This document shows positions 2,313-63,128 of a stretch of 64,000 nt of DNA, in pieces (position 1 is the stretch's first letter; every line of letters starts with the position of its first letter). The position numbers and the translations under genes were made by a program. The notes beneath the pieces are model-generated. The model did not search any database. It was not told where the DNA came from and saw only the letters and a program-made list of their open reading frames with translations. Source of the stretch: Mobula hypostoma (Eukaryota); the NCBI RefSeq assembly GCF_963921235.1, contig NC_086108.1:91762001-91826000 (forward strand), read 5' to 3'.

Positions 2313-4910
2313 TTGAGGAGGACTTCATGGAATGCATCTGTGATGGCTTTCTTGAAAAAAAAATGTCACTGAACCTGCAAGGGAACGTGTTATCTTCGAT
2401 CTGGTCCTGTGCAATGAGACACGTATAATTAGTGATCTTGTAGTTAGGGATCCTCTTGCAAAGTGTGATCACAGGATGACTGAGTTTCTCATACAAGTGG
2501 AGGGTGCAGTAGTTCAATCTGAAGCCAGTGCATTATGCCTAAGCAATGGAGACTACAATGGAATGAGGGAGGATTTGGCTAGTGTAGACTAGGACAATAG
2601 AGGTGGGGAGAGCCAGCCTTGGATGACTAAGGAAATAAAAGAAGGTATCAAAATAAAAGCTTGTCCCTGCAAGGTCACCAAGAGTAGTGGGAAACTGGAA
2701 GACTGGAAAAACTTTAAAAACCAACAAAGAACCACTAAGTGAGCAATAAAGAAAGGAACGATGGACTGTGACAATAAACTAGCACAAAATATAAAAATGG
2801 ATAGTAAAAGTTTTTTTAATTATGTAATTCCCTGGCTCATTTTTTACTGTTATGCTGTACCTATTTCATTTTGTGCTCCTCTGTGTGAGCTGCTTGTTAT
2901 CAGCTTAACTTTGGGTTACCGTTGAAGATAAGAGATAGGTGAAATGTGCGCCATCCAAAGTTAGGACGGTCGGATAAAGGGGAGGTTTCTCTGGTGAGGG
3001 ACACTAAGGTTGGGCTTGGGGCCTTTTGTTCGAGAGTAGATGAAGAGAGAAGACGCTGGGGAGAACCGGTCATAGCATACGATCCAGTGGGAGACCTGTT
3101 TGTTCGAGATGGATTGCGAGCGATGTTCGGAAGGCGATGTGTACTTTCACGTTAACCGAGAGGCCAGCACGTGAGTGACAGAGAAGTTTAAGATGAGCTC
3201 CAACTTGTGTGCACTTGACTGTTTAATTAGAATGGGCCCTTTTCTTTTTGTTATTCTTTACTAACCCTTTAGTTATGATTCATAAATATAATTCCTTTAA
3301 TCATATGTGGTGTTTTGTCTGTTATTTTGTGGCATTAATTTGTAACAGGGTAGCGAATTACACAGCATCCACACAAACAGGTGGTTTTGGGGTGGGCTTG
3401 CACCTCAATCTTACACAATCGGCGGGGTCAGAGATTGTCTTCCCTAGACTTAGGCAGCCGAGGAAACCAGGGTGTTTCAGTCTTATAAACCAGAAAAGGG
3501 AGGCTAAAGTGAACGTAGGTCTCTTGGAGGACGAAAAGGGGGAATTGACTTTGGGTAATGAGGAAATGACAGAGGCTTTGAATGATTATTTTGTGTCTGT
3601 CTTCACAGTGGAGGACACTTCTAACATGCCAAAGAGAGATGTTATGGATGCAGTGGGAGGTGAGGACCTCAATACAATAGCTATCACTTAAGAGGTAGTA
3701 CTGTAGTTGGGGAAAATAGTTGGAGCTATCATTAAAGATGAAATAGCGAGGCAACTGGAAAAGAAATAGATCCATCAGGCAGACGCAGCATGCATTCAGA
3801 AAAGGCAGATCCTGGTTGACAAACTTGCTGGAGCTCTTTGATGATATAATGAGCACAGTGGATAGAGGGGAACAGATGGATGTTATTTACAAACATACTT
3901 GGATTTCTAGAAGGTATTCGATAAGGTACAGCACAAAAGACTCATCCATAAGATAAGAATGCATAGAGTTGGGGGTGATATATGCAGAGAGATATAGATA
4001 GATTGAGTCAATATGCAAGGTTCTGGCAGATAGAGTACGATGTTAGTAAACGCGAGGTCATCCACTTTGGAAGGAGAAACGGAAGATCAGATTATTATTT
4101 AAAAGATTAAAAAAATGGCAGCATGCTGCTGTGCAGAGGGACTTGGGAGTGCTTGTGCATGAATCACAAAAGGTCGGTTTGCAGGCCATCAAGAAGGCAA
4201 ATGGAATGTTAGAACCATAGAAAACCTACAGCACAGTACAGGCCCTTTGGCCCACAGTGCTGTGCCGAACATGTACTTATGTTAATCTTCATTGCTAGAG
4301 GGATTGAATTTAAGAGCAGGGAGATTATGCTGCAACTGTACAGGGTACCGGTGAGGCCGCTCCTGGAGTACTGCGTGCAGTTCTGGTCTCCATACTTGAG
4401 GAAGGATATACTGGCTTTGGAGGTGGTGCAGGGGAGGCTCACCAGGTTGATTCCAGAGATGAGGGGGTTAGACTATGAGGAGAGATTGAGTCTCCTGAGA
4501 CTGTACTCGCTGGAAATCAGAAGAATAAGAGGAGATCTTTTAGAAACATATAAAATTATGAAAGGGATAGATAGGATAGAGGCAGGAAAGTTGTTTTCAC
4601 TGGTAGGTGAGACTAGAACTAGAGGACATAGCCTCAAGATTCGGGGGAGTAGATTTAGAATGGAAATGAGGAGGAAATGCTTGTCCCAAAGAGCAGTGAA
4701 TCTGTGGAATTTTTTGCCTCATGAAGCAATGGAAGCTACCCTCAGTAAGACAAGGTTGGATAGATTTTTGCATAGTAGGGGAATGAAGGGTTATGGGGAA
4801 AAGGCAGGTAGGTGGAGATGAGACCATGGCCAGATCAGCCATGATCTTATTGAATGGCAGAGCAGGCTCGACAGGCCAGATGTCCTACTCCTGCTCCTAT
4901 TTCTTATGCT
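2313..4910 (+). mobile_element. CR1 LINE ORF2 fragment(s), interrupted by a solo LTR (2823-3479) and a short inverted repeat tail (~4211-4278)
   Basis: ORFs 3248-3691 (ALNDYFVSVFTVED) and 4279-4821 (VRPLLEYCVQFWSPYLRKDI...TRGHSLK) are CR1 ORF2 motifs; 3' UTR ends TTCTTATG. Confidence 0.85.
2823..3479. mobile_element. Probable solo LTR
   Basis: Starts TGTAAT, ends GTTTCA, interrupts CR1 sequence. Shares ordered blocks with 6455-7028 (AATGTGCGCCATCCAA, GAGCTCCAA, TCTTTACTAACCCTTTAGT, CACAGCATCCACACAAACA). No clear TSD. Confidence 0.6.
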
Positions 4911-10667: not shown

Positions 10668-11180
10668 TACACTCAGTTGCCACTTTATTAGGTACACCTG
10701 TACACCTACATCAGCTTGTTAACGCAAATATCTAATCAGCCAATCATGTGACAGCAACTCAAGGCACAAAAGCATGCAAGCATGGTTGAGGGGTTCAGTT
10801 GTTGTTCAGACCAAACATCAAAATGTGGAAGAAATATGATCTAAGTGACCTTGACCATGAAGTGATTGTTGGTGCCAGCCTGGAAGGTTTGAGTATCTCA
10901 GAAAATGCTGATCCCTGGGGATTTTTACACACAACATTAAATGACTGTATGTAATGAGACAGGTCAGAGGAGATTGGCCAGACTGGTTCTAGCTGACAGG
11001 AAGGCAAAAGTAACTCAAATAACTAGACATTACAAGAGTGGTGTGTAGAAAAGTATCTCTGAAGGCACAAAATGTCAAACCTTGAATTTGATGGGTTAAA
11101 GCAGCAGAAGATCATGAATGTACACTTAGAGCCCTCCTTATTAATTACAGGAGGTGCAGATTAAAGGGTCAATTAGTGTA
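10668..11180 (+). mobile_element. Non-autonomous Tc1/mariner DNA transposon derivative
   Basis: TA-flanked termini TACACTCAGTTGCCACTTTATTAGG ... degenerate AAAGGGTCAATTAGTGTA. Internal MWKKYDLSDLDHEVIVGASLEGLSISENAD (from 10823) resembles the Tc1 transposase N-terminal HTH. Confidence 0.7.
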
Positions 11181-11227
11181 TCATCATATGAGTAAAGACC
11201 ACTATTGCAGACAATACTCTAGGTGTA

Positions 11228-12369
11228 ATATAGAAACATAGCAACATAGAAAATAGGTGCAGGAGTAGGCCATTCGGCCCTTCAAGCCTGCACCACCATT
11301 CAGTATGATCATGGCTGATCATCCAACTCAGAACCCTGTACCAGCCTTCCCTCCATACCCCCTGATCCCTAAATATAGCCAATGAACTGGCCTCAACTGT
11401 TTCCTGTGGCAGAGGGTTCCACAGATTCACCACTCTCTGTGTGAAGAAGTTTTTCCTAATCTTGGTCCTAAAAGGCTTCCCCTCTATCTTCAAGCTGTGA
11501 CCCCTCGTTCTGGACTTCCCCAACATCGGGAACAATCTTCCTGCATCTAGCCTGTCCAATCACTTTAGGATTTTATACGTTTCAATAAGGTCCCCCCTCA
11601 ATCTTCTAAATTCCAACGGGTATAAACCTAGTTGATCCAGTCTTTCATCATATGGAAGTCCTGCCATCCCAGGAATCAATCTGGTGAACCTTCTTTGTAC
11701 CCCCTCTATGGCAAGGATGTCTTTCCTCAGATTAGGGGACCAAAACTGCACACAATACTCCAGGTGTGGTCTCACCAAGGCCTTGTACATCTGCAGTAGT
11801 ACCTCCCTGCTCCTGTACTCAAATCCTTTTGCTATGAATGCCAGCATACCATTCGCCTTTTTCACCGCCTGCTGTTCCTGCATGCCCACTTTCAATGACT
11901 GGTGTATAATGACACCCAGGTCTCGTTGCACCTCCCCTTTTCCTAATTGGCCACCATTCAGATAATAATCTGTTTTCTTGTTTTTGCCACCAAAGTGGAT
12001 AACCTCACATTTATCCACATTAATTTGCATCTGCCATGAATTTGCCCACTCACCTAACCTATCCAAGTCACCCTGCATCCTCTTAGCATCCTCCTCACAG
12101 CTAACACTGCCGCCCAGCTTCGTGTCATCCGCAAACTTGGAGATGCTGCATTTAATTCCCTCACCCAAGTCATTAATATATATTGTAAACAACTGGGGTT
12201 CCAGCACTGAGCCTTGCGGTACCCCACTAGTCACTGCCTGCTATTCTGAAAAGGTCCCGTTTATTCCCACTCTTTGCTTCCTGTCTGCCAACCAATTCTC
12301 TATCCACATCAATACCTTACCCCAATACCGTGTGCTTTAAGTTTGCACACTAATCTCCTGTGTGGGACC
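11228..12369 (-). mobile_element. Young 5'-truncated CR1 LINE (same family as 14714-15583 and 39580-43706)
   Basis: ORF 11560-12234 (SGVPQGSVLEP..FADDTKLGG..VRPHLEYCVQFWSP) is nearly identical to 42026-43513; premature stop at 11560-11562; TTTCTATG tail. Confidence 0.95.
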
Positions 12370-13480: not shown

Positions 13481-14713
13481 CAAAAGTTCACTTAAGACCA
13501 GTCAATCTGTCCACTCATGATTCCAAGCTCTAGAACTATGTGAGACAAATTTTATTAGTGAATACTCCCAGGCCAGAACAGCACGTAGAAGGAATGCATA
13601 TTAGGAAGTTGCACACAAAAGTCAATATATCGTGTGATTTTATAACCATGAAAACTAGTTGACGTTCAAGGATGGTAAATCCTGCAAGACCTGCTGAGTT
13701 GCAGATTTGAACCTGCACTCATACCAAGCACCACTTGCACCAAACTAATTCATAAAGTCTTCTCCAATATGTGTGGTTCTGTGCATTCATGTTGAATGGT
13801 TTCTTTATGTAATAAAATACATGGCTGATTTAATAATATTTAAGAAAAAGCAAAAGAGTCAAGACTCATTAATTACCAAAGAATGTATAAATTATACAAC
13901 CTTGAGATTTGCTTGCTCACGGGTAGCTACAAAACAAGAAGCCCAAAAGAACCCAAAGAAAAAAAAAGAATAAAAATAAAAATAAAAGACCAACACTCAA
14001 TGAGCAAGAGAAAGAAAAAAAAATCATGTAAACAATTAAAGCAAAGAGCAACAGTGTTCCGAACCAAAATTGAGTCCTCAGTTCTGAACCTCAGAGCAGC
14101 CCGGAGTAGGCCCAAAGCCTTGCTTATCAGTTCATCATATGAGCAGGTCGGAGCACAGCAGCCGGGATAGTCGTCATAGCTTCAGTGCCATGGAGACGAA
14201 AGCGAGTGAAGTCAGCTCTCATCTGGACCGACACCCTGTCTTTTCAGTCTGTCTGGGCAGGCAGAACAGTGAAAGTCAATGGCACCCTGCAGAAACGAGT
14301 GAAGATTATGCAGAGCAAGCGAAATTGGCTCTCACCTCCAATTTGGTCTGGCGTTTAAACTCTCTAAACAGCATATTGTACCTTGCACTAGGACCCAGGC
14401 ACCACAGCTGTGAAAGGCTCCTCACACTAGGACCCAGGCTCCGGTGCTGTGAAAGGCTCTGGGCCTAGACCACGCTGTCCAGCAACTCGTTCTGGGCCCA
14501 GATTCCATCGCCTGACTCACTTTCAAGGACTCTATAATTCATGATCTTAGTATTATTTAATCTATCTATTTATGTATGTATGTATGTATTGATTTATTAT
14601 TTGTGCTTTTTTTGTAATTGCACAATTTGTTTTCTTTTGGTTGGTTCTCAGTCTTTGTGTGTAAATTTTCAGTTATTCCATTGCATTTCTTTGTTTTACT
14701 GTGAAGTTCTGCA

Positions 14714-15583
14714 GAGTGGGCAAACTCATGGCAGATGCAATTTGAGTGGGCAAACTCATGGCAGATGCAATTTAATGTGGATAAATGTGAAGTTATCCAC
14801 TTTGGTGGCAAAAATAGGAAAACAGATTATTATCTGAATGGTGGCCGATTAGGAAAAGGGGAGGTGCAACGAGACCTGGGTGTCATTATACACCAGTCAT
14901 TGAAAGTGGGCATGCAGGTACAGCAGGCAGTGAAAAAGGCGAACGGTATGCTGGCATTTATAGCGAGAGGATTCGAGTACAGGAGCAGGGAGGTACTACT
15001 GCAGTTGTACAAGGCCTTGGTGAGACCACACCTGGAGTATTGTGTGCAGTTTTGGTCCCCTAATCTGAGGAAAGACATCTTTGCCATAGAGGGAGTACAA
15101 AGAAGGTTCACCAGATTGATTCCTGGGATGGCAGGTCTTTCATATGAAGAAAGACTGGATGAACTGGGCTTGTACTCGTTGGAATTTAGAAGATTGAGGG
15201 GGGATCTGATTGAAACGTATAAGATCCTAAAGGGATTGGACAGGCTAGATGCGGGAAGATTGTTCCCGATGTTGGGGAGGTCCAGAACGAGGGGTCACAG
15301 TTTGAGGATAGAGGGGAAGCCTTTTAGGACCGAGATTAGGAAAAACTTCTTCACACAGAGAGTGGTGAATCTGTGGAATTCTCTGCCACAGCAAACTGTT
15401 GAGGCCAGTTCATTAGCTATGTTTAAAAGGAAGTTAGATATGGCCCTTGTGGCTACAGGGGTCAGGGGGTATGGAGGGAAGGCTGGGTTCTGAGTTGGAT
15501 GATCAGCCATGATCATAATAAATGGCGGTGCAGGCTCGAAGGGCCGAATGGCCTACTCCTGCACCTATTTTCTATGTTTCTAT
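14714..15583 (+). mobile_element. Young 5'-truncated CR1 LINE, uninterrupted RT C-terminal ORF (14735-15493)
   Basis: 252-aa ORF nearly identical to the C-terminus of 42026-43513; 3' UTR and (TTTCTATG)n tail; 30-bp tandem duplication at the 5' junction. Confidence 0.95.
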
Positions 15584-21961: not shown

Positions 21962-24900
21962 ACCAGGACTAGCGTCATTCTTACACTCAGCCATTAGGTC
22001 CTATAATGAGTCAACCTGTAGGCCGGGAAATAATGACACCCTCCTTTCTTTTACTTTTTCAATTTTTTTATTAATTTCTTACACAAAAGAATACAGAGTA
22101 CAGTAGGGTATATAATATATCAATTACAATATATTGAAATCACAGATAAAGTGTAATTACCCCATAGCCATATAAAATGAAATTTAAACATAATATTGAA
22201 AAGAGATAATTTTATTATACAAAAAAATCTAAACCCACTTCCAGAAAAAAAACAGCTGTTAGGTTTTAAAAAAAAGGAAGAAATCCTTAGCATATAGTAA
22301 AACATATTATTAGCCAATATCTGTGCTTAATAGCAAATCAAAGATTTTGAAAATAATTCAAAAAAAGTCCCCACAATGTTAAAAAAATCTTCTGTAGGTT
22401 CAGAAATTGAACAGCGAATCTTCTCTAAGTTTAAGCATGACATAACATCCTGTAACCAATGAGTATGAGTAGGTGGAGAGGCATCCTTCCACTTAAGCAA
22501 CAATGCCCTCCTGGCTATAAGAGAAATAAAGGCCAAAATATGCAGATCATGTGTCTCCAAAATAATATCATTTCCTCCAACAATACCAAATAAGGCAGTC
22601 AAAGGATTAGGTTTAAAATTTTCTTAAAAAGGCACCGAAAGAGTTTGAAATACTTCCTTCCAATATTTCTCAAGACTCAGACAAGTCCAAAACATATGGA
22701 TTAGTGAAGTTTCTCCATTATTACGTCTATCACAAAAGAGAGATATATTCGAATAAAAATGAGACAGCGTATCTTTAGTCATATGGGCTCTGTAAACCAC
22801 TTTAAATTGTAGAAGGGAATGACGGGCACATAGCGATGAGGTATTAACCAATTTAAAAATTTCATTCCAAGTGTCCTCAAAAATTGAAATCTGAAAATCT
22901 TGTTCCCAAAGATTTTTAATATTATCTAAAGGAATATTTCTCATTCCCAACAACATACCATAAATATTAGATATAGCTGAATTATGGAAGGGTTTCAAAT
23001 TAAAAATTATATCAAGTAAATTTTTATCTGGATGCTTAGGAAATGTATGTACTTGAGAACGCAAAATGTCTCTAATCTGTAAATATCGAAAAAAGTGAGT
23101 TCTTGGTAGACTGTACTTAACTGACAGTTGTTCAAATGAAGAGAGACTATCTCCAACAAACAAATCATAAAAACATTTAATACCCAATCTATTCCACTCT
23201 TTAAAAACTACATCAGATATAGAAGGTATAAAAAATAGTTAGGAGAAATGGGACTGGAAAGTGAAAAACTCAATAAACCAAAATATTTTCTAAATTGTAC
23301 CCAAATCCTTAAAGTGCGTAAGATTCTGTATATTGACAGCCCAGTAATAAAACCTAAAATTGGGTAAGGCTAAACTTCCATTTTTTTTTAGCTTTTTGAA
23401 GATGAACTTTATTTAATTGAGAAATTTTATTTTTTCCATATATAAGAAGATATAATAGAATCCAAAGAACCAAAAAAGGATTTAGGAATAGAAACAGGTA
23501 TGGCCTGAAATAGTTATAAAAATTTAGGCAAAATATTCATTTTAATGGAATTGATTTGGCCAATCAACGACAAAGAGGGGGGTGACCAGTTTGAAAGTGC
23601 CTTCTTAACATAATTCAGAAGTGTAAAAAACATTTTCTTTAAAAAGGAATTTATAATTCCTAGTAATAGTTACGCCCAAATAAGTAAATTGATTTCTTAC
23701 AATTTTAAAAGGAAGGTTAGTATTAACTAATACCAAATTATTCAAAGGAAAGAGTTCACTGTTATGAAAGTTAAGCTTATATCCAGAAAACTGACTAAAG
23801 CAGGAAAGTAAAGGAAGTAGAGAAGGGAAAGAAGACACCACATTAGAAATGTAGAGCAAAATGTCACCAGCACACCAGCACAAAGCGAAACTTTGTGGGT
23901 AATACTCCTCCTTAAAATACCAGTGATATCATTAGATTCCCGGAAAGCAATAGCTAAAGGTTTTAAGATCATATCAAAAAGCAAAGGACTCAAAGGGTAA
24001 CCTTGTCTAGTTCCACAATAAAGTTTAAATGGTTTAGGGTACTGAGAGTTAGAAAGAACCTGACCAGAGGGAGTTAAGTAAAGTAATTTAATCCATTGAA
24101 TAAAATTGGGCCAAAAGTTACATTTTTCTAAAGTTTTAAATAAATAATTCCATTCGACCCGGTCAAAGGCTTTCTCAGCATCTAAGGATATCATACATTC
24201 CAAAATCTCTTTAGAAGGAGAATAAATAACAGTCAATAAATGACGAATATTAAAGTGGGAGTATCGATTTTTGATAAATCCAGTCTGATCATCAGAGATA
24301 ATAGATGGCAAAATATTTTCAATCCTACAAGCCAAAAGTTTAGATAAAATTTTAGTACCAACATTAAGTAAGGAAATAGGTCTATAAGAAGAGCATTCAA
24401 TTGGCCTTATTCTTTTTAAGAATAAATGAAATAGAGGCTTCATAAAAAGATTGTGGCAACTTACCTAATTTAAAAGAGTCGGAAAGGACTGAATATAAAT
24501 GAGGTATAAGCAAGAAGGAAAAAGCCTTATAAAACTCTCCAGAAAATCCATCAGAACCCGAAGCCTTCCCCGAGTGCAAAGAGTGAACAACCTCGGCAAT
24601 TTCCTCATAGGAAATAGGTTGATCCAACGATTTTCAAATATCATCAGAAAGTGTAGGAATGTTTAATCAAAGGGCAGTCAACAGCTAAACCTTCCATTCC
24701 CTCCCAAAACAATCTACTGGATGAGCTCCAAAAAAAAAAAAATTCAAGGCAAAACTGCATTCCAACAAGACACAACAAAAAAAAGAGCAAAATTAAACAT
24801 ATTTTTAAAAACCTCATAAAAATTATAGTATAAAAATATTAGAAAGAAATATGAAAGTTCAAAACAAATTATCTTAGAAAGTATTAACTCAAAGAAAACT

Positions 24901-37936: not shown

Positions 37937-39614
37937 GTTTCAAAATTGGATTATTTTGAATGATCAGAACACACCAAAGTATTACAATTGCACAAGTATT
38001 TTCAGTTCAGGAAATGTACTATCAATTTCAAAAGGTAATAAAAAAATTAAAGTTTGAAATTCACTTATTTTATACATATCCTTACGCATATATATTAAAA
38101 TCCAATATCATGTTTAAAGTACTTACAATGTTAGATTGTTCTCTTGCACTAAAGATCGCATTACCATTCTCTTTAAACTGCTACTGAAATAAGGCAATAC
38201 ATTCTTGTATTATTTGCAAGCAGAGATTAAAGGTGAATTTGTCTTTTGTAGTTTAATGTTGCAGCTTCAGCTTGTCTGGAAATGTGGATAAGTAACCCTG
38301 TGGCAGCAGTGTTGCAGTCTGATAAGTAGACAATTCGATTCCCTATTAAATGCATTTTGACCCTTTGTGTTTCTTCAATTCTAAATTATGAGCACTTAAT
38401 GGTAATCCCTTCTATTACATTTAATAGAAAATGCATTTTTAAAACTGCCATAAAGTGATCATTTTAACTATGAAATAAATGCAGCAATGCAAATTTATGT
38501 TAAATGTGCTGTAATAGACACCTTATTTCGCATCAGGTCTAAAATATTCTGGGTAATGCTTGCTTCAGCTCCAGCTGTGTCATTGCCTTGTGACTGTCTA
38601 GACATGACTCTTATGATTAATGCATATGATGTCAGCATATGACAACATCAGTATTAACCCTTATGTTACTATAACAGTTACAATAATTTCATTTACTGAA
38701 TATGTTAATTCCAGATAAAGAACATTCAAGTAATGTCATCATGCTGAACTCCGCTTTATGCTTTGTGAAAATGCAGTGTCTTTTAAAAATCTAATAATTC
38801 ACCTTTTGTCCCACAACATCAGGCTCAAGAACAGTTATTACTCTTCATCGGGGTCCTGATTGGATAATTTCAATCACCTCAATGTCGAACTGACTTCAAG
38901 GAATCTACAACTCATATTCTCAGTAATTATTTATTGTTTGATTGATTAATTTATGTATTTGCTCAGATTGTCTTTTTTGCAAATTTCTTGTTTGTCAGTC
39001 TTTGTTCATGTGTAGTTTTTCATTGATTCTATTGGATTTCTTTGTTCTACTGTGAATGCCTGCAAGAAAATCAATCTCAGGGTAGTATATGGGGACATAT
39101 ATGTATTTTGATAATAAATTTACTTTGAACTATTTGAATTTCTGGGTAATTTGAAGTAAGCATTTCTTTTGAGAAGTGTATTCTCTAAATTGCTGGTCCA
39201 TTACTGCCCAGTAAGTAATCTTACTTAAATGTTAATGAAATTAAGATGTTCGCAAATACAGAAATCACCCCTTTTAAGCAGAAGTGACAATTCAACTCAA
39301 ATCCAATTCAGGATTTTATTTTACTTTACATACCTCCACTGTCTCTGTTTTAACATCCCAAGAAGTCATATTTCATCGAACAAAAGTAAGAGCAAAGAAT
39401 CACAATCCAAGGCACGTTTCCAAGTGAACAGATACTGAGCCCCATAAAATGGCAGAAAGTGAGGAGCAAAGACATTAACTGAAAGATAAATGTACCATCA
39501 TCTCCCAAAGCAAGTCATAGGTAAAATCGGAGAATGAAATCAGTATCATAATTATTTAAAAACTACGGAAAAAACTTTTTGGTGTTGTGAAGTTGATTTG
39601 AGGAGAGGGGCAGT

Positions 39615-40550
39615 ATGAGTGTGAGGGCAGTTTGCTGTTCTCGGTGTCGGATATGGGAGGCCCTGGAGTCTCCAAGCCTCCCGGACGTCTACATCTGCGC
39701 CAAGTGCATCGAGATGCAGCTCCTAAGGGACCGCGTTACGGAACTGGAGCTGCAGCTCGATGACCTTCGTCTGGTCAGGGAGAGTAAGGAGGTGATAGAG
39801 AGGAGTGGAAGGCAGGTGGTCACGCCGGGGCCACGGGAGGCAGACAAGTGGGTCACGGTTAGGAGGGGGAAGGGGAAAAGTCAGGTGATGGGGAGTACCC
39901 CGGTGGCTGTGCCCCTTAACAACAGGTACTCCTGTTTGAGTACTGTTGGGGGGGCTAGCTTACCCGGGGGAAGCGACAGTGGCCGTGCCTCCGGCACAGA
40001 GTCTGGCCCTGTAGCTCAGAAGGGTAGGGCAAGGAAGAGGAGGGCAGTTGCGATAGGGGACTCGATAGTAAGGGGGTCAGATAGGCGATTCTGTGGACGC
40101 AGTCCAGAGACCCGGATGGTAGTTTGCCTCCCTGGTGCCAGGGTCCGGGATATTTCTGATCGTGTCCAAGATATCCTGAAGTGGGAGGGTGAGGAGCCAG
40201 AGGTCGGGGTACATATAGGTACCAATGACATAGGTAGGAAAAGGGATGAGGTCCTGAAAGGAGAATATAGGGAGCTAGGAAGGGAGTTGAGAAAAAGGAC
40301 CGCAAAGGTAGTAATCTCGGGTTTACTGCCTGTGCCATGCGACAGTGAGAGTAGGAATGCGATGAGGTGGAGGATAAATGCGTGGCTGAGGGATTGGAGC
40401 GGGGGGCAGGGATTCAAGTTTTTGGATCATTGGGACCTCTTTTGGCGCAGGCGTGACCTGTACAAAAAGGACGGGTTACACTTGAATCGTAGAGGGACCA
40501 ATATCCTGGCAGGGAGATTAGCGGGGGCTACTGAGGTGACTTTAAACTAG
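39615..40550 (+). CDS. CR1 ORF1p: N-terminal Cys4 zinc-finger-like motif, coiled coil, SGNH/GDSL esterase domain
   Basis: Open 311-aa ORF: CSRC...CAKC; LRDRVTELELQLDDLR; SGNH blocks AIGDSIVR, CLPGARV, HIGTNDI, DGLHLN. Confidence 0.92.
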   Translation: MSVRAVCCSRCRIWEALESPSLPDVYICAKCIEMQLLRDRVTELELQLDDLRLVRESKEVIERSGRQVVTPGPREADKWVTVRRGKGKSQVMGSTPVAVPLNNRYSCLSTVGGASLPGGSDSGRASGTESGPVAQKGRARKRRAVAIGDSIVRGSDRRFCGRSPETRMVVCLPGARVRDISDRVQDILKWEGEEPEVGVHIGTNDIGRKRDEVLKGEYRELGRELRKRTAKVVISGLLPVPCDSESRNAMRWRINAWLRDWSGGQGFKFLDHWDLFWRRRDLYKKDGLHLNRRGTNILAGRLAGATEVTLN

Positions 40551-43513
40551 AATGGTTGCGGGGTGGGAATCAAATTAAAGAGGCTAGGCGTGAGGAGGTT
40601 AGTTCACAACAGAGGGATGGGAACCAGTGCAGAGAGACAGAGGGGTGTAAAATGAGGGTAGAAGCAAAAAGTACAAAGGAGAAAAGTAAAAGTGGCAGGC
40701 CGACAAATCCAGGGCAAGCATTAAAAAGGGCCACTTTTCAACATAATTGTATAAGGGCTAAGAGAGTTGTAAAAGAGCGCCTGAAGGCTTTATGTGTCAA
40801 TGCAAGGAGCATTCGTAATAAGGTGGATGAATTGAAAGTGCAGATTGTTATTAATGATTATGATATAGTTGGGATCACAGAGACATGGCTCCAGGGTGAC
40901 CAGGGATGGGAGCTCAACGTTCAGGGATATTCAATATTCAGGAGGGATAGACATGAAGGAAGGGGAGGTGGGGTGGCGTTGCTGGTTAAAGAAGAGATTA
41001 ACGCAATAGAAAGGAAAGACATAAGCCAGGAAGATGTGGAATTGATATGGGTAGAGCTGCGTAACACTAAGGGGCAGAAGACGCTGGTGGGAGTTGTGTA
41101 CAGGCCACCTAACAGTAGTAGTGAGGTCGGAGATGGTATTAAACAGGAAATTAGAAATGTGTGCAATAAAGGAACAGCAGTTATAATGGGTGACTTCAAT
41201 CTACATGTAGACTGGGTGAACCAAATTGGTAAAGGTGCTGAGGAAGAGGATTTCTTGGAATGTATGCGGGATGGTTTTTTGAACCAACATGTTGAGGAAC
41301 CAACTAGAGAGCAGGCTATTCTGGACTGGGTTTTGAGCAATGAGGAAGGGTTAATTAGCAATCTTGTCGTGAGAGGCCCCTTGGGTAAGAGTGACCATAA
41401 TATGGTGGAATTTTTCATTAAGATGGAGAGTGACATAGTTAATTCAGAAACAAAGGTTCTGAACTTAAAGAGGGGTAACTTTGAAGGTATGAGACGTGAA
41501 TTAGCTAAGATAGACTGGCAAATGACACTTAAAGGATTGACGGTGGATATGCAATGGCAAGCATTTAAAGGTTGCATGGATGAACTACAACAATTGTTCA
41601 TCCCAGTTTGGCAAAAGAATAAATCAAGGAAGGTAGTGCACCCGTGGCTGACAAGAGAAATTAGGGATAGTATCAATTCCAAAGAAGAAGCATACAAATT
41701 AGCCAGAGAAAGTGGCTCACCTGAGGACTGGGAGAAATTCAGAGTTCAGCAGAGGAGGACAAAGGGCTTAATTAGGAAGGGGGAAAAAAGATTATGAGAG
41801 AAAACTGGCAGGGAACATAAAAACGGACTGTAAAAGCTTTTATAGATATGTAAAAAGGAAAAGACTGGTAAAGACAAATGTAGGTCCCCTGCAGACAGAA
41901 ACAGGTGAATTGATTATGGGGAGCAAGGACATGGCAGACCAATTGAATAATTACTTTGGTTCTGTCTTCACTAAGGAGGACATAAATAATCTCCCAGAAA
42001 TAGTAAGGGACAGAGGTCCAGTGAGATGGAGGAACTGAGCGAAATACATGTTAGTAGGGAAGTGGTGTTAGGTAAATTGAAGGGATTGAAGGCAGATAAA
42101 TCCCCAGGGCCAGATGGTCTGCATCCTAGAATGCTTAAGGAAGTAGCCCAAGAAATAGTGGATGCATTAGTGATAATTTTTCAAAACTCGTTAGATTCTG
42201 GAATAGTTCCTGAGGATTGGAGGGTGGCTAATGTAACCCCACTTTTTAAAAAAGGAGGGAGAGAGAAACCGGGGAATTATAGACCGGTTAGCCTAACGTC
42301 GGTGGTGGGGAAACTGCTGGAGTCAGTTATCAAGGATGTGATAACAGCACATTTGGAAAGTGGTGAAATGATTGGACAAAGTCAGCATGGATTTGTGAAA
42401 GGAAAATCATGTCTGACGAATCTCATAGAATTTTTTGAGGATGTAACTATTAGAGTGGATAGGGGAGAACCAGTGGATGTGGGATATTTGGATTTTCAAA
42501 AGGCTTTTGACAAGGTCCCACACAGGAGATTAGTGTGCAAACTTAAAGCACACAGTATTGGGGGTAAGGTATTGGTGTGGGTGGAGAATTGGTTAGCAGA
42601 CAGGAAGCAAAGAGTGGGAATAAACGGGACCTTTTCAGAATGGCAGGCGGTGACTAGTGGGGTACCGCAAGGCTCAGTGCTGGGACCCCAGTTGTTTACA
42701 GTATATATTAATGACTTGGATGAGGGAATTAAATGCAGCATCTCCAAGTTTGCGGATGACACGAAGCTGGGTGGCAGTGTTAGCAGTGAGGAGGATGCTA
42801 AGAGGATGCAGGGTGACTTGGATAGGTTGGGTGAGTGGGCAAATTCATGGCAGATGCAATTTAATGTGGATAAATGTGAAGTTATCCGCTTTGGTGGCAA
42901 AAATAGGAAAACAGATTATTATCTGAATCGTGGCCGATTAGGAAAAGGGGAGGTGCAACGAGACCTGGGTGTCATTATACACCAGTCATTGAAAGTGGGC
43001 ATGCAGGTACAGCAGGCAGTGAAAAAGGTGAATGGTATGCTGGCATTTATAGCGAGAGGATTCGAGTACAGGAGCAGGGAGGTACTACTGCAGTTGTACA
43101 AGGCCTTGGTGAGACCACACCTGGAGTATTGTGTGCAGTTTTGGTCCCCTAATCTGAGGAAAGACATCTTTGCCATAGAGGGAGTACAAAGAAGGTTCAC
43201 CAGATTGATTCCTGGGATGGCAGGACTTTCATATGAAGAAAGACTGGATGAACTGGGCTTGTACTCGTTGGAATTTAGAAGATTGAGGGGGGATCTGATT
43301 GAAACGTATAAGATCCTAAAGGGATTGGACAGGCTAGATGCAGGAAGATTGTTCCTGATGTTGGGGAAGTCCAGAACGAGGGGTCACAGTTTGAGGATAG
43401 AGGGGAAGTCTTTTAGGACCGAGATTAGGAAAAACTTCTTCACACAGAGAGTGGTGAATCTGTGGAATTCTCTGGAATTCTGTGGAATTCTGTGGATCTG
43501 TGGAAACAGTTGA
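40541..43513 (+). pseudogene. CR1 ORF2 (APE endonuclease + reverse transcriptase), broken by a +1 and a -1 indel and a C-terminal tandem expansion
   Basis: APE motifs VNARSIRNK, GITETWL, YRPP, MGDFN, SDHNMV (40556-41797); RT motifs YRPVSLTS, QHGF, LDFQKAFDKVPH, GVPQGSVLGP, FADD (42026-43513). Confidence 0.95.
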
Positions 43514-44099
43514 GGCCAGTTCATTGGCTATATTTAAGAGGGAGTTAGATATGGCCCTTGTGGCTACGGGGGTCAGGGGGTATGGAGGGAAGGCTGGGGC
43601 GGGGTTCTGAGTTGGATGATCAGCCATGATCATAATAAATGGCGGTGCAGGCTCGAAGGGCCGAATGGCCTACTCCTGCACCTATTTTCTATGTTTCTAT
43701 GTTTCTATTTCTTTTTATGCACTGCAGGAGATTCTATTAAGTGCCTTTACTACACTACATACTGAAGTGTGTGGTCTCTTAGGAGGTACATATTAATATT
43801 GGAGATTAGCCTGCTAATCATCCCTCCTAAATGCAACAAAATTATTTGTTCTTACTCAACACCTCATCTTAAAAATGCAGTGAAAGGATATTCTTTAGTT
43901 TAAAATTAGGAATCTTTTGGTTAGATTTATCAGTGAAAAATGAGCTGCAAAGCTCAGTTTTTATGTGATACGTACTGACATGACAGAGAGACCATCGAGG
44001 AATTGCCCACACATTCACTTTTACTTTGATGTAGTGTGTTACAAGCATTGTACCATACATAGGTATTACTGTCAAGAGGAGTAATTAGAAATATTTTCT

Positions 44100-60887: not shown

Positions 60888-61866
60888 GTCATAGTCATAC
60901 TTTATTGATCCCGGGGGAAATTGGTTTTCGTTACAGTTGCACCATAAATAATAAATAGTAATAAAACCATAAATAGTTAAATAGTAATATGTAAATTATG
61001 CCAGTAAATTATGAAATAAGTCCAGGACCAGCCTATTGGCTCAGGGTATCTGACCCTCCAAGGGAGGAGTTATAAAGTTTGATGGCCACAGGCAGGAATG
61101 ACTTCTTATGACGCTCTGTGTTGCATCTCGGTGGAATAAGTCTCTGGCTGAATGTACTCCTGTGCCCAACCAGTACATTATGTAGTGGATGGGAGACATT
61201 GTCCAAGATAGCATGCAACTTGGACAGCATCCTCTTATCAGACACCACCGTCAGAGAGTCCAGTTCCATCCCCACAACATCACTGGCCTTACGAATGAGT
61301 TTGTTGATTCTGTTGGTGTCTGCTACCCTCAACCTGCTGCCCCAGCACACAACAGCAAACATGATAGCACTGGCCACCACAGACTCGTAGAACATCCTCA
61401 GCATCATCCGACAGATGTTAAAGGACTTCAGTCTCCTCAGGAAATAGAGATGGCTCTGACCCTTGTAGACGGCCTCAGTGTTCTTTGACCAGTCCAGTTT
61501 ATTGTCAACTCGTATCCCTAGGTATTTGTAATCCTCCACCATGTCCACACTGACCCCCTGGATAGAAACAGGGGTCACCGGTACCTTAGCTCTCCTCAGG
61601 TCTACCACCAGCTCCTTAGTCTTTTTCACATTAAGCTGCAGATAATTCTGCTCACACCATGTGACAAGGTTTCCTACCGTAGCCCTGTACTCAGCCTCAT
61701 CTCCCTTGCTGATGCATCCAACTATGGCAGAGTCATCCGAAAACTTCTGAAGATGACAAGGCTCTGTGCAGTAGTTGAAGTCCGAGGTGTAAATGATGAA
61801 GAGAAAGGGAGACAAGACAGTCCCCTGTGGAGCCCCAGTGCTGCTGATCACTCTGTCGAACACACA
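60888..61866 (-). mobile_element. Young 5'-truncated Rex1/Babar LINE with open RT C-terminal ORF (61033-61863)
   Basis: STGAPQGTVLSPFLF, QKFSDDSAIVG, LQLNVKKTKELVVD, YKYLG, SFLPVAIKLYN; AATAAA and (TATGAC)n tail; TTCTA at both flanks. Confidence 0.92.
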
Positions 61867-63128
61867 TTCTATATTCTATAGATAAATTAAGAGTCAAAGG
61901 AGGGATAAGGTGAGAATAGTCCTCTCAAAGACCAACATGGCCATCTGCATTTAGAACCAAAAGAAATGGGAGAGATTTTTCACGAAAATTTCTCTCCTGT
62001 GTGGAGAAAATGATGGAAACTGGGGAGAAAATGGGGGAAATGAAAGGTGAAGTCTTTCACCACATACGGACTAGCAAGGAGGAGGTTTTAGAAGCTGTAA
62101 AGTGGACAAATCCTTAGGGCCAGACCTAGTGCATTCTCAGACCTTGTTAAAAGCTAAATAAGAAATGGCAGAGGCCCTTACAGAGCTTTTTGCTCCATAG
62201 GTGAGGCTTTGGAAGACTGAAGAGTGGCTAATGTGCTGCCATTGCTTTAAAAGTGTTGCAAAACCAGGCTAGGAAATTACAAGCAGTGAATCTAACATCG
62301 ATGGCAGGTAATTTACAGGAGTGGATTCTGCAAGACAGGATTTACCATCAGTTGGAGAGAGAGAATCCAATTCATGACAGTCAGCTTGATATGCACGGGA
62401 AGTTGTCTCTGGCAAATCTCTTGGAGTTCTTTGAGGAAGTAACTAAGAAACTAGACAAGGGCAAGGCATTGGATATTGTCAATAAGTACTTTGGAAGGGC
62501 CTTTAATTAGGTCTCTCTTGTAGGCTAGAAGGTTAAATTGCATAAGATCCGGGGAGATAGCGGACTGGATTCGTAAGTAGCTTAATAGTGGGAAGCGGAG
62601 GATGATGGTTGAGGAGAGCCACTGTGGTCAGTGCTGGTACCTTTGATTCAAGGCATGGTTAGCACATTTGCGGATGTTACTAAAATAGGCGATGTTGTTG
62701 ACAGTGTAGAAGGTTATGAAAAATCACAGGGGGATATTGATCAGCTAAGTACGTACGCAGTGAACATACAAACTCCTTACAGACAGTAGTGGGAATTTAA
62801 CCTCGATCACTGACACTGTAAAGTGGTATGCTAACCACCACGCTACCATGCCACCTTAGGACCTAAGGTCTAGATCGAGGAATGCAAGTGCATAATTCAC
62901 TGAAAGCAGCATCACAAGTAGATGGGATGATGAAGAAGTCATTCCGTATGCTGGTCTTCATCAGTCAAGGTCATGAGTTTAGGCTTTCAGTTCAGATAAA
63001 TGTGAGGTTTGCATTTTGGGATATTAATCCAGGTTAGTACTTGTACAGTGAATGGTAGGGCACTGGGGAGAATTATGGAAACGATAAAATAGAGTAGCTT
63101 TATTTGTCACATCTTTTCGAAACATGCA

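Follow-up and report, generated by a model that had tools for sequence, protein, structure and literature searches.

How is the second open reading frame (ORF2) of a CR1 retrotransposon translated? The question is raised by a 64,000-nucleotide stretch of the genome of the devil ray Mobula hypostoma (contig NC_086108.1, positions 91,762,001 to 91,826,000; the whole stretch is called the window, and is numbered from its first letter). The window carries a dead, 5'-truncated copy of a CR1 long interspersed nuclear element (LINE) at 39592..43709 (+ strand, like every feature below unless marked otherwise), which belongs to a family that we call family A. Its ORF1 ends ACT TTA AAC TAG, with the slippery heptamer TTTAAAC (U_UUA_AAC in the RNA) in phase at 40541..40547 and the stop codon directly 3' of it at 40548..40550. 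ORF2 lies in the -1 frame; it opens at 40535, after a TGA at 40532-40534, overlaps ORF1 by 16 nt and encodes an endonuclease (Pfam Exo_endo_phos). These features had been pointed out in a preliminary description of the window, and they were borne out when the frame 39597-40550 was re-read. In what follows it is argued, from sequence comparisons, that programmed -1 frameshifting at this site very probably yields an ORF1-ORF2 fusion in CR1.

In a single copy the heptamer is only suggestive, because ORF1 holds two in-phase X_XXY_YYZ heptamers in its 317 codons, as chance allows. The second (40319) falls at a leucine column whose codon varies across lineages. It is the conservation across families that exceeds chance.

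Conservation of the heptamer

A search of the genome with four divergent ORF1 proteins, followed by retrieval of the matching stretches, yielded about ten CR1 families. The heptamer and TAG are kept in 30 of 30 close family A copies, one of which is the window copy. Across the roughly ten families, 95 of 107 distinct junctions of this genome consist of an exact TTTAAAC followed by TAA or TAG; the remaining 12 show single changes or deletions, and seven of these belong to the old, decayed family C. The stop is TAG in family A, TAA in other families (five of the ten in this genome) and TGA in a lizard consensus. U_UUA_AAC plus a stop is also present in bird-type and very distant contigs. Among 31 metagenome loci, 21 gave a match to the ORF1 end and 10 did not. 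Nine of the 21 ends are exact, six stop short of the ORF1 stop, one is exact but mis-anchored (L062), one reads G_TTA_AAC (L065), two have the heptamer followed by AAG, and two are mutated. The heptamer followed by AAG, with no stop, was noted in L076 and L090, bird-type members of one subfamily from different metagenomes; this could be chance or a sub-lineage with a later stop. In contigs of four outside runs, whose status as RNA is unproven and which are silent on expression, 13 differences are listed at 40510-40537 and none at 40538-40558.

The strongest evidence comes from codon usage in 19 representatives. Each stands for one lineage and was picked from copies whose anchor is intact, and they differ widely in protein sequence (pairwise amino-acid identity 18-85%, median 36%). 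The preliminary description had held that free synonymous variation of the heptamer would tell against a slippery site; there is none, the last two ORF1 codons being TTA in 19/19 and AAC in 19/19. The codon preceding TTA ends in T in 18/19, though the residue varies (A, G, T, C, D, S). The lone exception, L065, reads G_UUA_AAC, a form listed for equine arteritis virus. No other column among 74 degenerate ones uses a single codon, and at invariant positions upstream the codons are mixed (Asn, AAT 15 and AAC 4; Leu, four codons). In a set of homologous ORF1 proteins that was not selected in this way, L-N ends 66 of the 78 that reach the ORF1 end; the named organisms among the homologues are rays, sharks, a teleost, frogs and a hummingbird.

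The same junction is carried by consensuses from alligator, crocodile, coelacanth, frog, chimaera, sharks, rays and lizard in the supplement of PMC13343379. These were found by motif search in 400-letter consensus rows, where the junction is visible only in 5'-truncated consensuses; the collection is therefore motif-selected and has no denominator, and full-length consensuses could alter the breadth claimed here. Of the 20 motif matches, two lie in 5' untranslated region (UTR)-like sequence of shark CR1s and one in an AT-rich L2. Two dogfish consensuses, SquAca_CR1-3 and CR1-18, have a junction-like GGTTTAAACTAR followed by GCGGGAA in an apparent 5' UTR.

Four homologues, two of them ending in G-N and two carrying K-N, prompted two further protein searches (P0092, P0097 and P0123-P0240; P0089, P0099 and P0241-P0262). 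In one clade, whose one named animal member is the crab Portunus, K-N occupies the place of L-N in 103 of the 113 proteins that extend to the end, and in 89 of these 103 it is followed by a variable tail of 10-11 residues up to the stop. The residue before K-N can be encoded by an A-ending codon in 103/103, and 20% of flanking residues have no such codon. Before L-N, a T-ending codon is available in 64/66; 22 of these residues are Y, C, D, H or F, none of which is ever found in front of K-N. A third clade, with Chionoecetes as its named member, has G-N at the end of 15 of 24 proteins; the residue before it is Q in 12 and K, A or V in the others. Judged from these protein sequences, the replacements fit A_AAA_AAC and G_GGA_AAC as putative sites. 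Three proteins of the G-N clade instead carry F-F close to their ends, which would be consistent with a U-run site. No DNA of the K-N and G-N clades was found in viral contigs, phages or four host-contaminated genomes; the four genomes led back only to L192-L194.

Two side observations concern the wider collection. One-base changes in a G-run just upstream of the heptamer fuse the ORF1 and ORF2 frames in L031, L032, L043, L045, L098 and L099 and in P0037 and P0053; the resulting genomic read-through frames contain ...G-F-K-L.... CR1-type elements or ORF1 also occur in bacterial-labelled records (L192, L193, L194; P0021, P0166, P0169, P0230), most likely through host contamination of the assemblies. 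Scans of viral contigs with A1 and of genome contigs with P0021 gave no matches.

Reading frame and start codons of ORF2

If ORF2 is entered by frameshifting, it should lie in a constant phase behind the heptamer. The endonuclease motif is recognisable in 15 of 18 lineage representatives, and in all 15 the -1 frame contains no stop between heptamer and endonuclease (the other frames contain 1-12). The phase raised for checking in the preliminary description is thus constant, with -1 linkers of 37-108 codons. The same arrangement was met in L193, which was retrieved with the distant ORF1 query P0091 when its DNA had not been seen: it reads TAT TTA AAC TAG with a G6 run at +11 and a Met-free linker of 33 codons, and the helix of P0091 is six residues longer. 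Its sister L192 has the same junction and a one-base loss downstream.

Because the -1 frame closes 1-8 codons upstream of the heptamer in most families, an ORF2 start upstream of the heptamer at a shared codon is impossible. Downstream, four of the 15 lineages have no in-frame Met before the endonuclease; in the other 11 the position of the first Met varies between codon 3 and codon 53. The preliminary description had correctly placed an ATG at 40552 out of frame and the first in-frame ATG of the window copy at 40652..40654, but the latter is no family feature. It is private to the window copy, being ATG in 1/30 close copies and GTG in 29/30, and G is the majority letter or the sole listed alternative at 40652 in the four outside runs. 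With GTG in 29/30 copies, the first in-frame AUG of family A as a whole is codon 215, within the endonuclease (M-G-D-F-N, 41186..41188; the codon number is that of the 1015-codon frame of copy L115). The loss of the sole early in-frame ATG as a family trait strengthens the case for frameshifting.

An ATG does stand at the position matching 40652 in another family of this genome, G, and the relationship between the two families is informative. From 40610 on, families A and G are 92-93.5% identical, whereas in ORF1 they are about 75% identical (L152, L172 and L173 compared), and this shift in identity marks a recombination point into family G ORF2 at 40610..40621, with the donor's displaced G-tract. 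In family A the heptamer, stop and G-run are the family's own; 18 additional in-phase codons come next, and family G ORF2 follows them. The donor's G-tract persists about 60 nt downstream (AGAGGG in 20/30 copies). Family G has two early AUGs, one in a UAAUG overlap and one matching 40652. In family A the first was lost through the swap and the second through an A-to-G change, and the family amplified nonetheless. Since family A lost both and still spread, we infer that neither AUG of family G is needed for ORF2.

Probable frameshifting, its candidate stimulator and the alternatives

The junction thus combines an in-phase X_XXY_YYZ heptamer, conservation beyond amino-acid need, and an open -1 reading frame without a conserved start codon. 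The synonymous freeze, the constant phase and the stop-free linker support the frameshifting that the preliminary description had proposed, which is deduced from them. In the proposed mechanism the last two ORF1 codons would serve as the slippery site, at which a minority of ribosomes would step back one base. tRNA-Leu and tRNA-Asn, paired with UUA AAC, would re-pair with UUU AAA, after which CUA would be decoded in place of the UAG stop, giving ...E-V-T-L-N-L-E-W-L.... ORF2 would be made as a C-terminal extension of the ORF1 protein (ORF1p) and not from a start codon of its own. Judging from the intact copy L115, the fusion should have about 1,320 amino acids (311 + 1013 codons), and it would be produced alongside an excess of free ORF1p.

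The least certain step is the stimulator. Most likely, slow termination at the adjacent stop would act together with a G-run that lies 8-10 nt downstream and would either bind a protein or fold into a G-quadruplex. The G-run is conserved in position and is a candidate unstructured stimulator; it lies at 40558..40567 in the window copy (GCGGGGTGGG) and usually has the form G5-N1-2-G3. A G5 run starts at +8 to +11 in 17/18 lineages, and G5-N1-2-G3 stands at +9 to +11 in 15/18, versus one match in about 33 kb elsewhere in 11 elements. From family to family it moves by 1-2 nt relative to the codon frame, and so it is a nucleotide-level motif. Its G4Hunter-type score (1.4-2.3) ranks among the highest 2% of windows of each element. 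The preliminary description was right that a G-rich tract follows a 6-nt spacer, but the conserved core is at +9 to +11 and has no stable fold (z -0.67). By analogy with systems described elsewhere, the remaining candidates would be a protein-bound motif, a G-quadruplex or an effect of the adjacent stop. [quoted passage not shown] Stimulation by a G-quadruplex was shown in synthetic constructs only, with no natural case known, and an effect of a nearby stop is reported for pea enation mosaic virus (both in the available part of PMC5009743).

A number of points weigh against frameshifting. A heptamer alone usually yields low frameshifting. No local stem-loop or pseudoknot was found 5-9 nt downstream: five folds computed around the site did not outperform shuffled sequences (local fold z -0.67, -0.41 and +0.33; nested folds only, in a segment poor in C for pairing), and the RNA-structure stimulator that had been proposed is not borne out. 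Pairing of the G-run with distant parts of the element fared no better. For the pyrimidine arm of the 3' UTR hairpin, cognate partners were not preferred; in family A alone the tail is the best partner of the G-run (none of about 300 windows is better, and 6 of 82 G-matched controls are equal), in the other nine lineages 1-62 windows are better, and in cofolding with the junction the 3' hairpin mostly stayed closed. With the terminal repeats, permutation gave p 0.22, 0.21 and 0.33, and the junction was unremarkable among G-matched windows. A site stimulated over a long distance, of the barley yellow dwarf virus type, is accordingly unsupported: between the downstream segment and the 3' end no pairing specific to the family emerged (cognate preference p 0.21-0.33). 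The G5 core is itself interrupted by C in 13/30 close family A copies, including the window copy.

Other points on the same side concern the counts. Because intact-anchor copies were chosen, conservation among the 19 representatives is inflated at six letters of the heptamer (all but the first T), yet the protein set assembled without that choice points the same way. Since the sequences are related, the counts do not represent independent events. The K-N and G-N clades are known from proteins alone, again related ones, and the dipeptide is missing in 10/113 and 9/24 of them, respectively. Finally, 11 of the 15 lineages do possess an in-frame Met before the endonuclease, and family G (L152-L161) has TAA TG over the heptamer, that is, a UAAUG stop-start overlap in the ORF2 frame. 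This overlap is absent in family A and, among the lineages compared, is present in family G only; the letters recur in three shark consensuses of the supplement cited above.

The last two points bear on termination-reinitiation, in which ribosomes stop at the ORF1 end and restart at a nearby AUG or non-AUG codon in the -1 frame, with the conserved letters positioning the ribosome. It is the accepted route for L1, where it is AUG-independent (PMC5009743), and for SART1, where the UAAUG arrangement also seen in family G drives it (PMC3708506). A Met at codon 4 in three of six bird-type lineages, and an ORF1 stop that always adjoins the heptamer in the vertebrate clade, are what it would lead one to expect. 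However, it leaves both the exact slippery heptamer and the switch to K-N or G-N unexplained. The stop comes 10-11 codons later in 89/103 K-N-clade proteins, two bird copies keep the heptamer and G-run with AAG replacing the stop, and family A lost both AUGs. As the general route reinitiation is unlikely, although frameshifting and reinitiation could coexist in family G.

A lower probability still attaches to a signal in RNA or DNA that is not decoded, such as a splice acceptor, a binding site for ORF1p or reverse transcriptase (RT), or a recombination hot spot, with ORF2 made from processed RNA. The behaviour of the G-run as a nucleotide-level motif and the recombination of family A close to it are compatible with such a signal, but it would need neither phase with ORF1 nor an open -1 linker, and no joints or indels are listed at the junction in the contigs of the four runs (again with RNA status unproven). 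A splice acceptor in particular is ruled out by the TAA of five of the ten families, which supplies no AG, and by the TGA variants. Scarcely credible is the proposal that L-N is required at the esterase C-terminus and its codons were inherited unchanged: the last Asn is invariant in a 40-sequence alignment, but other invariant residues tolerate synonymous codons, the helix that leads up to L-N measures anything from 19 to 32 residues counted from the catalytic motif, K-N and G-N take the place of L-N in other clades, and the codon comparison already goes far to refute the proposal.

Programmed frameshifting may also be extended to a broader model, which we regard as tentative and would not put at even chances. 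Here, -1 frameshifting would be ancestral in esterase-ORF1 CR1 from crustaceans to birds, with switches among U_UUA_AAC, A_AAA_AAC and G_GGA_AAC. The vertebrate slip would be driven by the unstructured G-run (protein-bound or as a quadruplex) and not by an RNA stem, and the product would be an ORF2 protein (ORF2p) permanently tethered to ORF1p.

The element, related systems and implications

The window copy is 97-98% identical to sister copies over up to 4.1 kb, and its longest matches to them begin at 39592-39596. ORF1 (39615..40550, 311 amino acids) has a Cys motif, a coiled-coil-like stretch and an SGNH esterase domain (Pfam Lipase_GDSL_2, E 2e-14); it matches the ORF1 esterase of PDB 4C1B (E 1.9e-26), and the closest named protein is from Mobula hypostoma itself (94%). 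The first piece of ORF2 (40535..41797) consists of an 84-codon basic linker in the -1 frame and the APE endonuclease, whose motif C-V-N-A-R-S starts at 40793, and an RT piece follows at 41990..43513 (Pfam RVT_1, E 4.5e-32). In alignment to L115, ORF2 is broken near 41779 and near 42015 and has about 20 extra bases at 43476-43501. The 3' end (43644..43709) is a UTR hairpin followed by short tandem TTTCTATG repeats, with no poly(A), as in CR1. An esterase ORF1 with an APE-RT ORF2 is likewise the CR1 arrangement, and the junction and ORF1 end match library entries labelled CR1. Family A is young and abundant: it has 1837 candidate matches in the genome, the best 40 of the 1837 at 97-100%, and in L115 ORF2 is open for 1015 codons from the heptamer. 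Further LINE fragments lie at 4213-4821 (+), 11173-12240 (-), 14705-15493 (+), 22624-24464 (-) and 61033-61875 (-) of the window. Going by resemblance, they are presumably 3' portions of family A and of other CR1s, together with one piece like L1/Tx1 and an RT piece like Rex1.

The element shares its ORF1, its APE-RT ORF2, the 3' hairpin and the terminal repeats with vertebrate CR1 with an SGNH-esterase ORF1 (PMC13343379; PDB 4C1B, PMC3905857). The word 'frameshift' is absent from the available main text of both papers, where the junction is not annotated as a recoding site, and CR1 frameshifting is not described in the accessible portions of PMC11835228, PMC7175516, PMC4120745 and PMC10275272. 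'CR1' occurs 0 times in the first 300,000 of the 449,034 characters of PMC5009743. More generally, a full-text literature search found CR1 frameshifting undescribed; an earlier remark may stand in the 1997 papers on chicken and turtle CR1 or in Repbase reports.

The junction resembles those of retroviral gag-pol and coronavirus 1a/1b (PMC5009743) in having the most shifty heptamer type, a start-less enzyme in the -1 frame and a 0-frame stop soon after. Unlike these, it has no stem-loop or pseudoknot 5-9 nt downstream, and CR1 encodes no protease to cut the fusion. Among APE-type LINEs, TRE5-A and TRE3-A of Dictyostelium, which differ from CR1 in clade and ORF1 type, are stated in a review to need a -1 frameshift for ORF2 (PMC5911963), and a +1 shift or reinitiation has been suggested for Paramecium LINEs (PMC5405496). 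The PRRSV nsp2 site (PMC4937337) likewise uses an unstructured motif at a narrow spacer, 9-11 nt there versus 8-10 nt in CR1, but its motif is C-rich and bound by nsp1beta and PCBP, whereas that of CR1 is G-rich. L1 and SART1 have in common with CR1 a bicistronic LINE RNA with low ORF2 output, and SART1 shares the UAAUG overlap with family G. L1 has a spacer and separate ORFs, whereas the CR1 ORFs overlap in -1 phase over a frozen heptamer.

The translation of LINE ORF2 has been described as unclear (PMC3708506). Most vertebrates have CR1 as their dominant retrotransposon group (PMC13343379). With a site of seven letters, a single pair of reporters is enough to test the question. If frameshifting is confirmed, CR1 ORF2p would be a fusion with ORF1p, the stoichiometry of ORF1 to ORF2 would be set as in retroviruses, and annotations and assay constructs that begin at the first ATG would be wrong. 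The conserved G-run would then represent a new type of natural frameshift stimulator.

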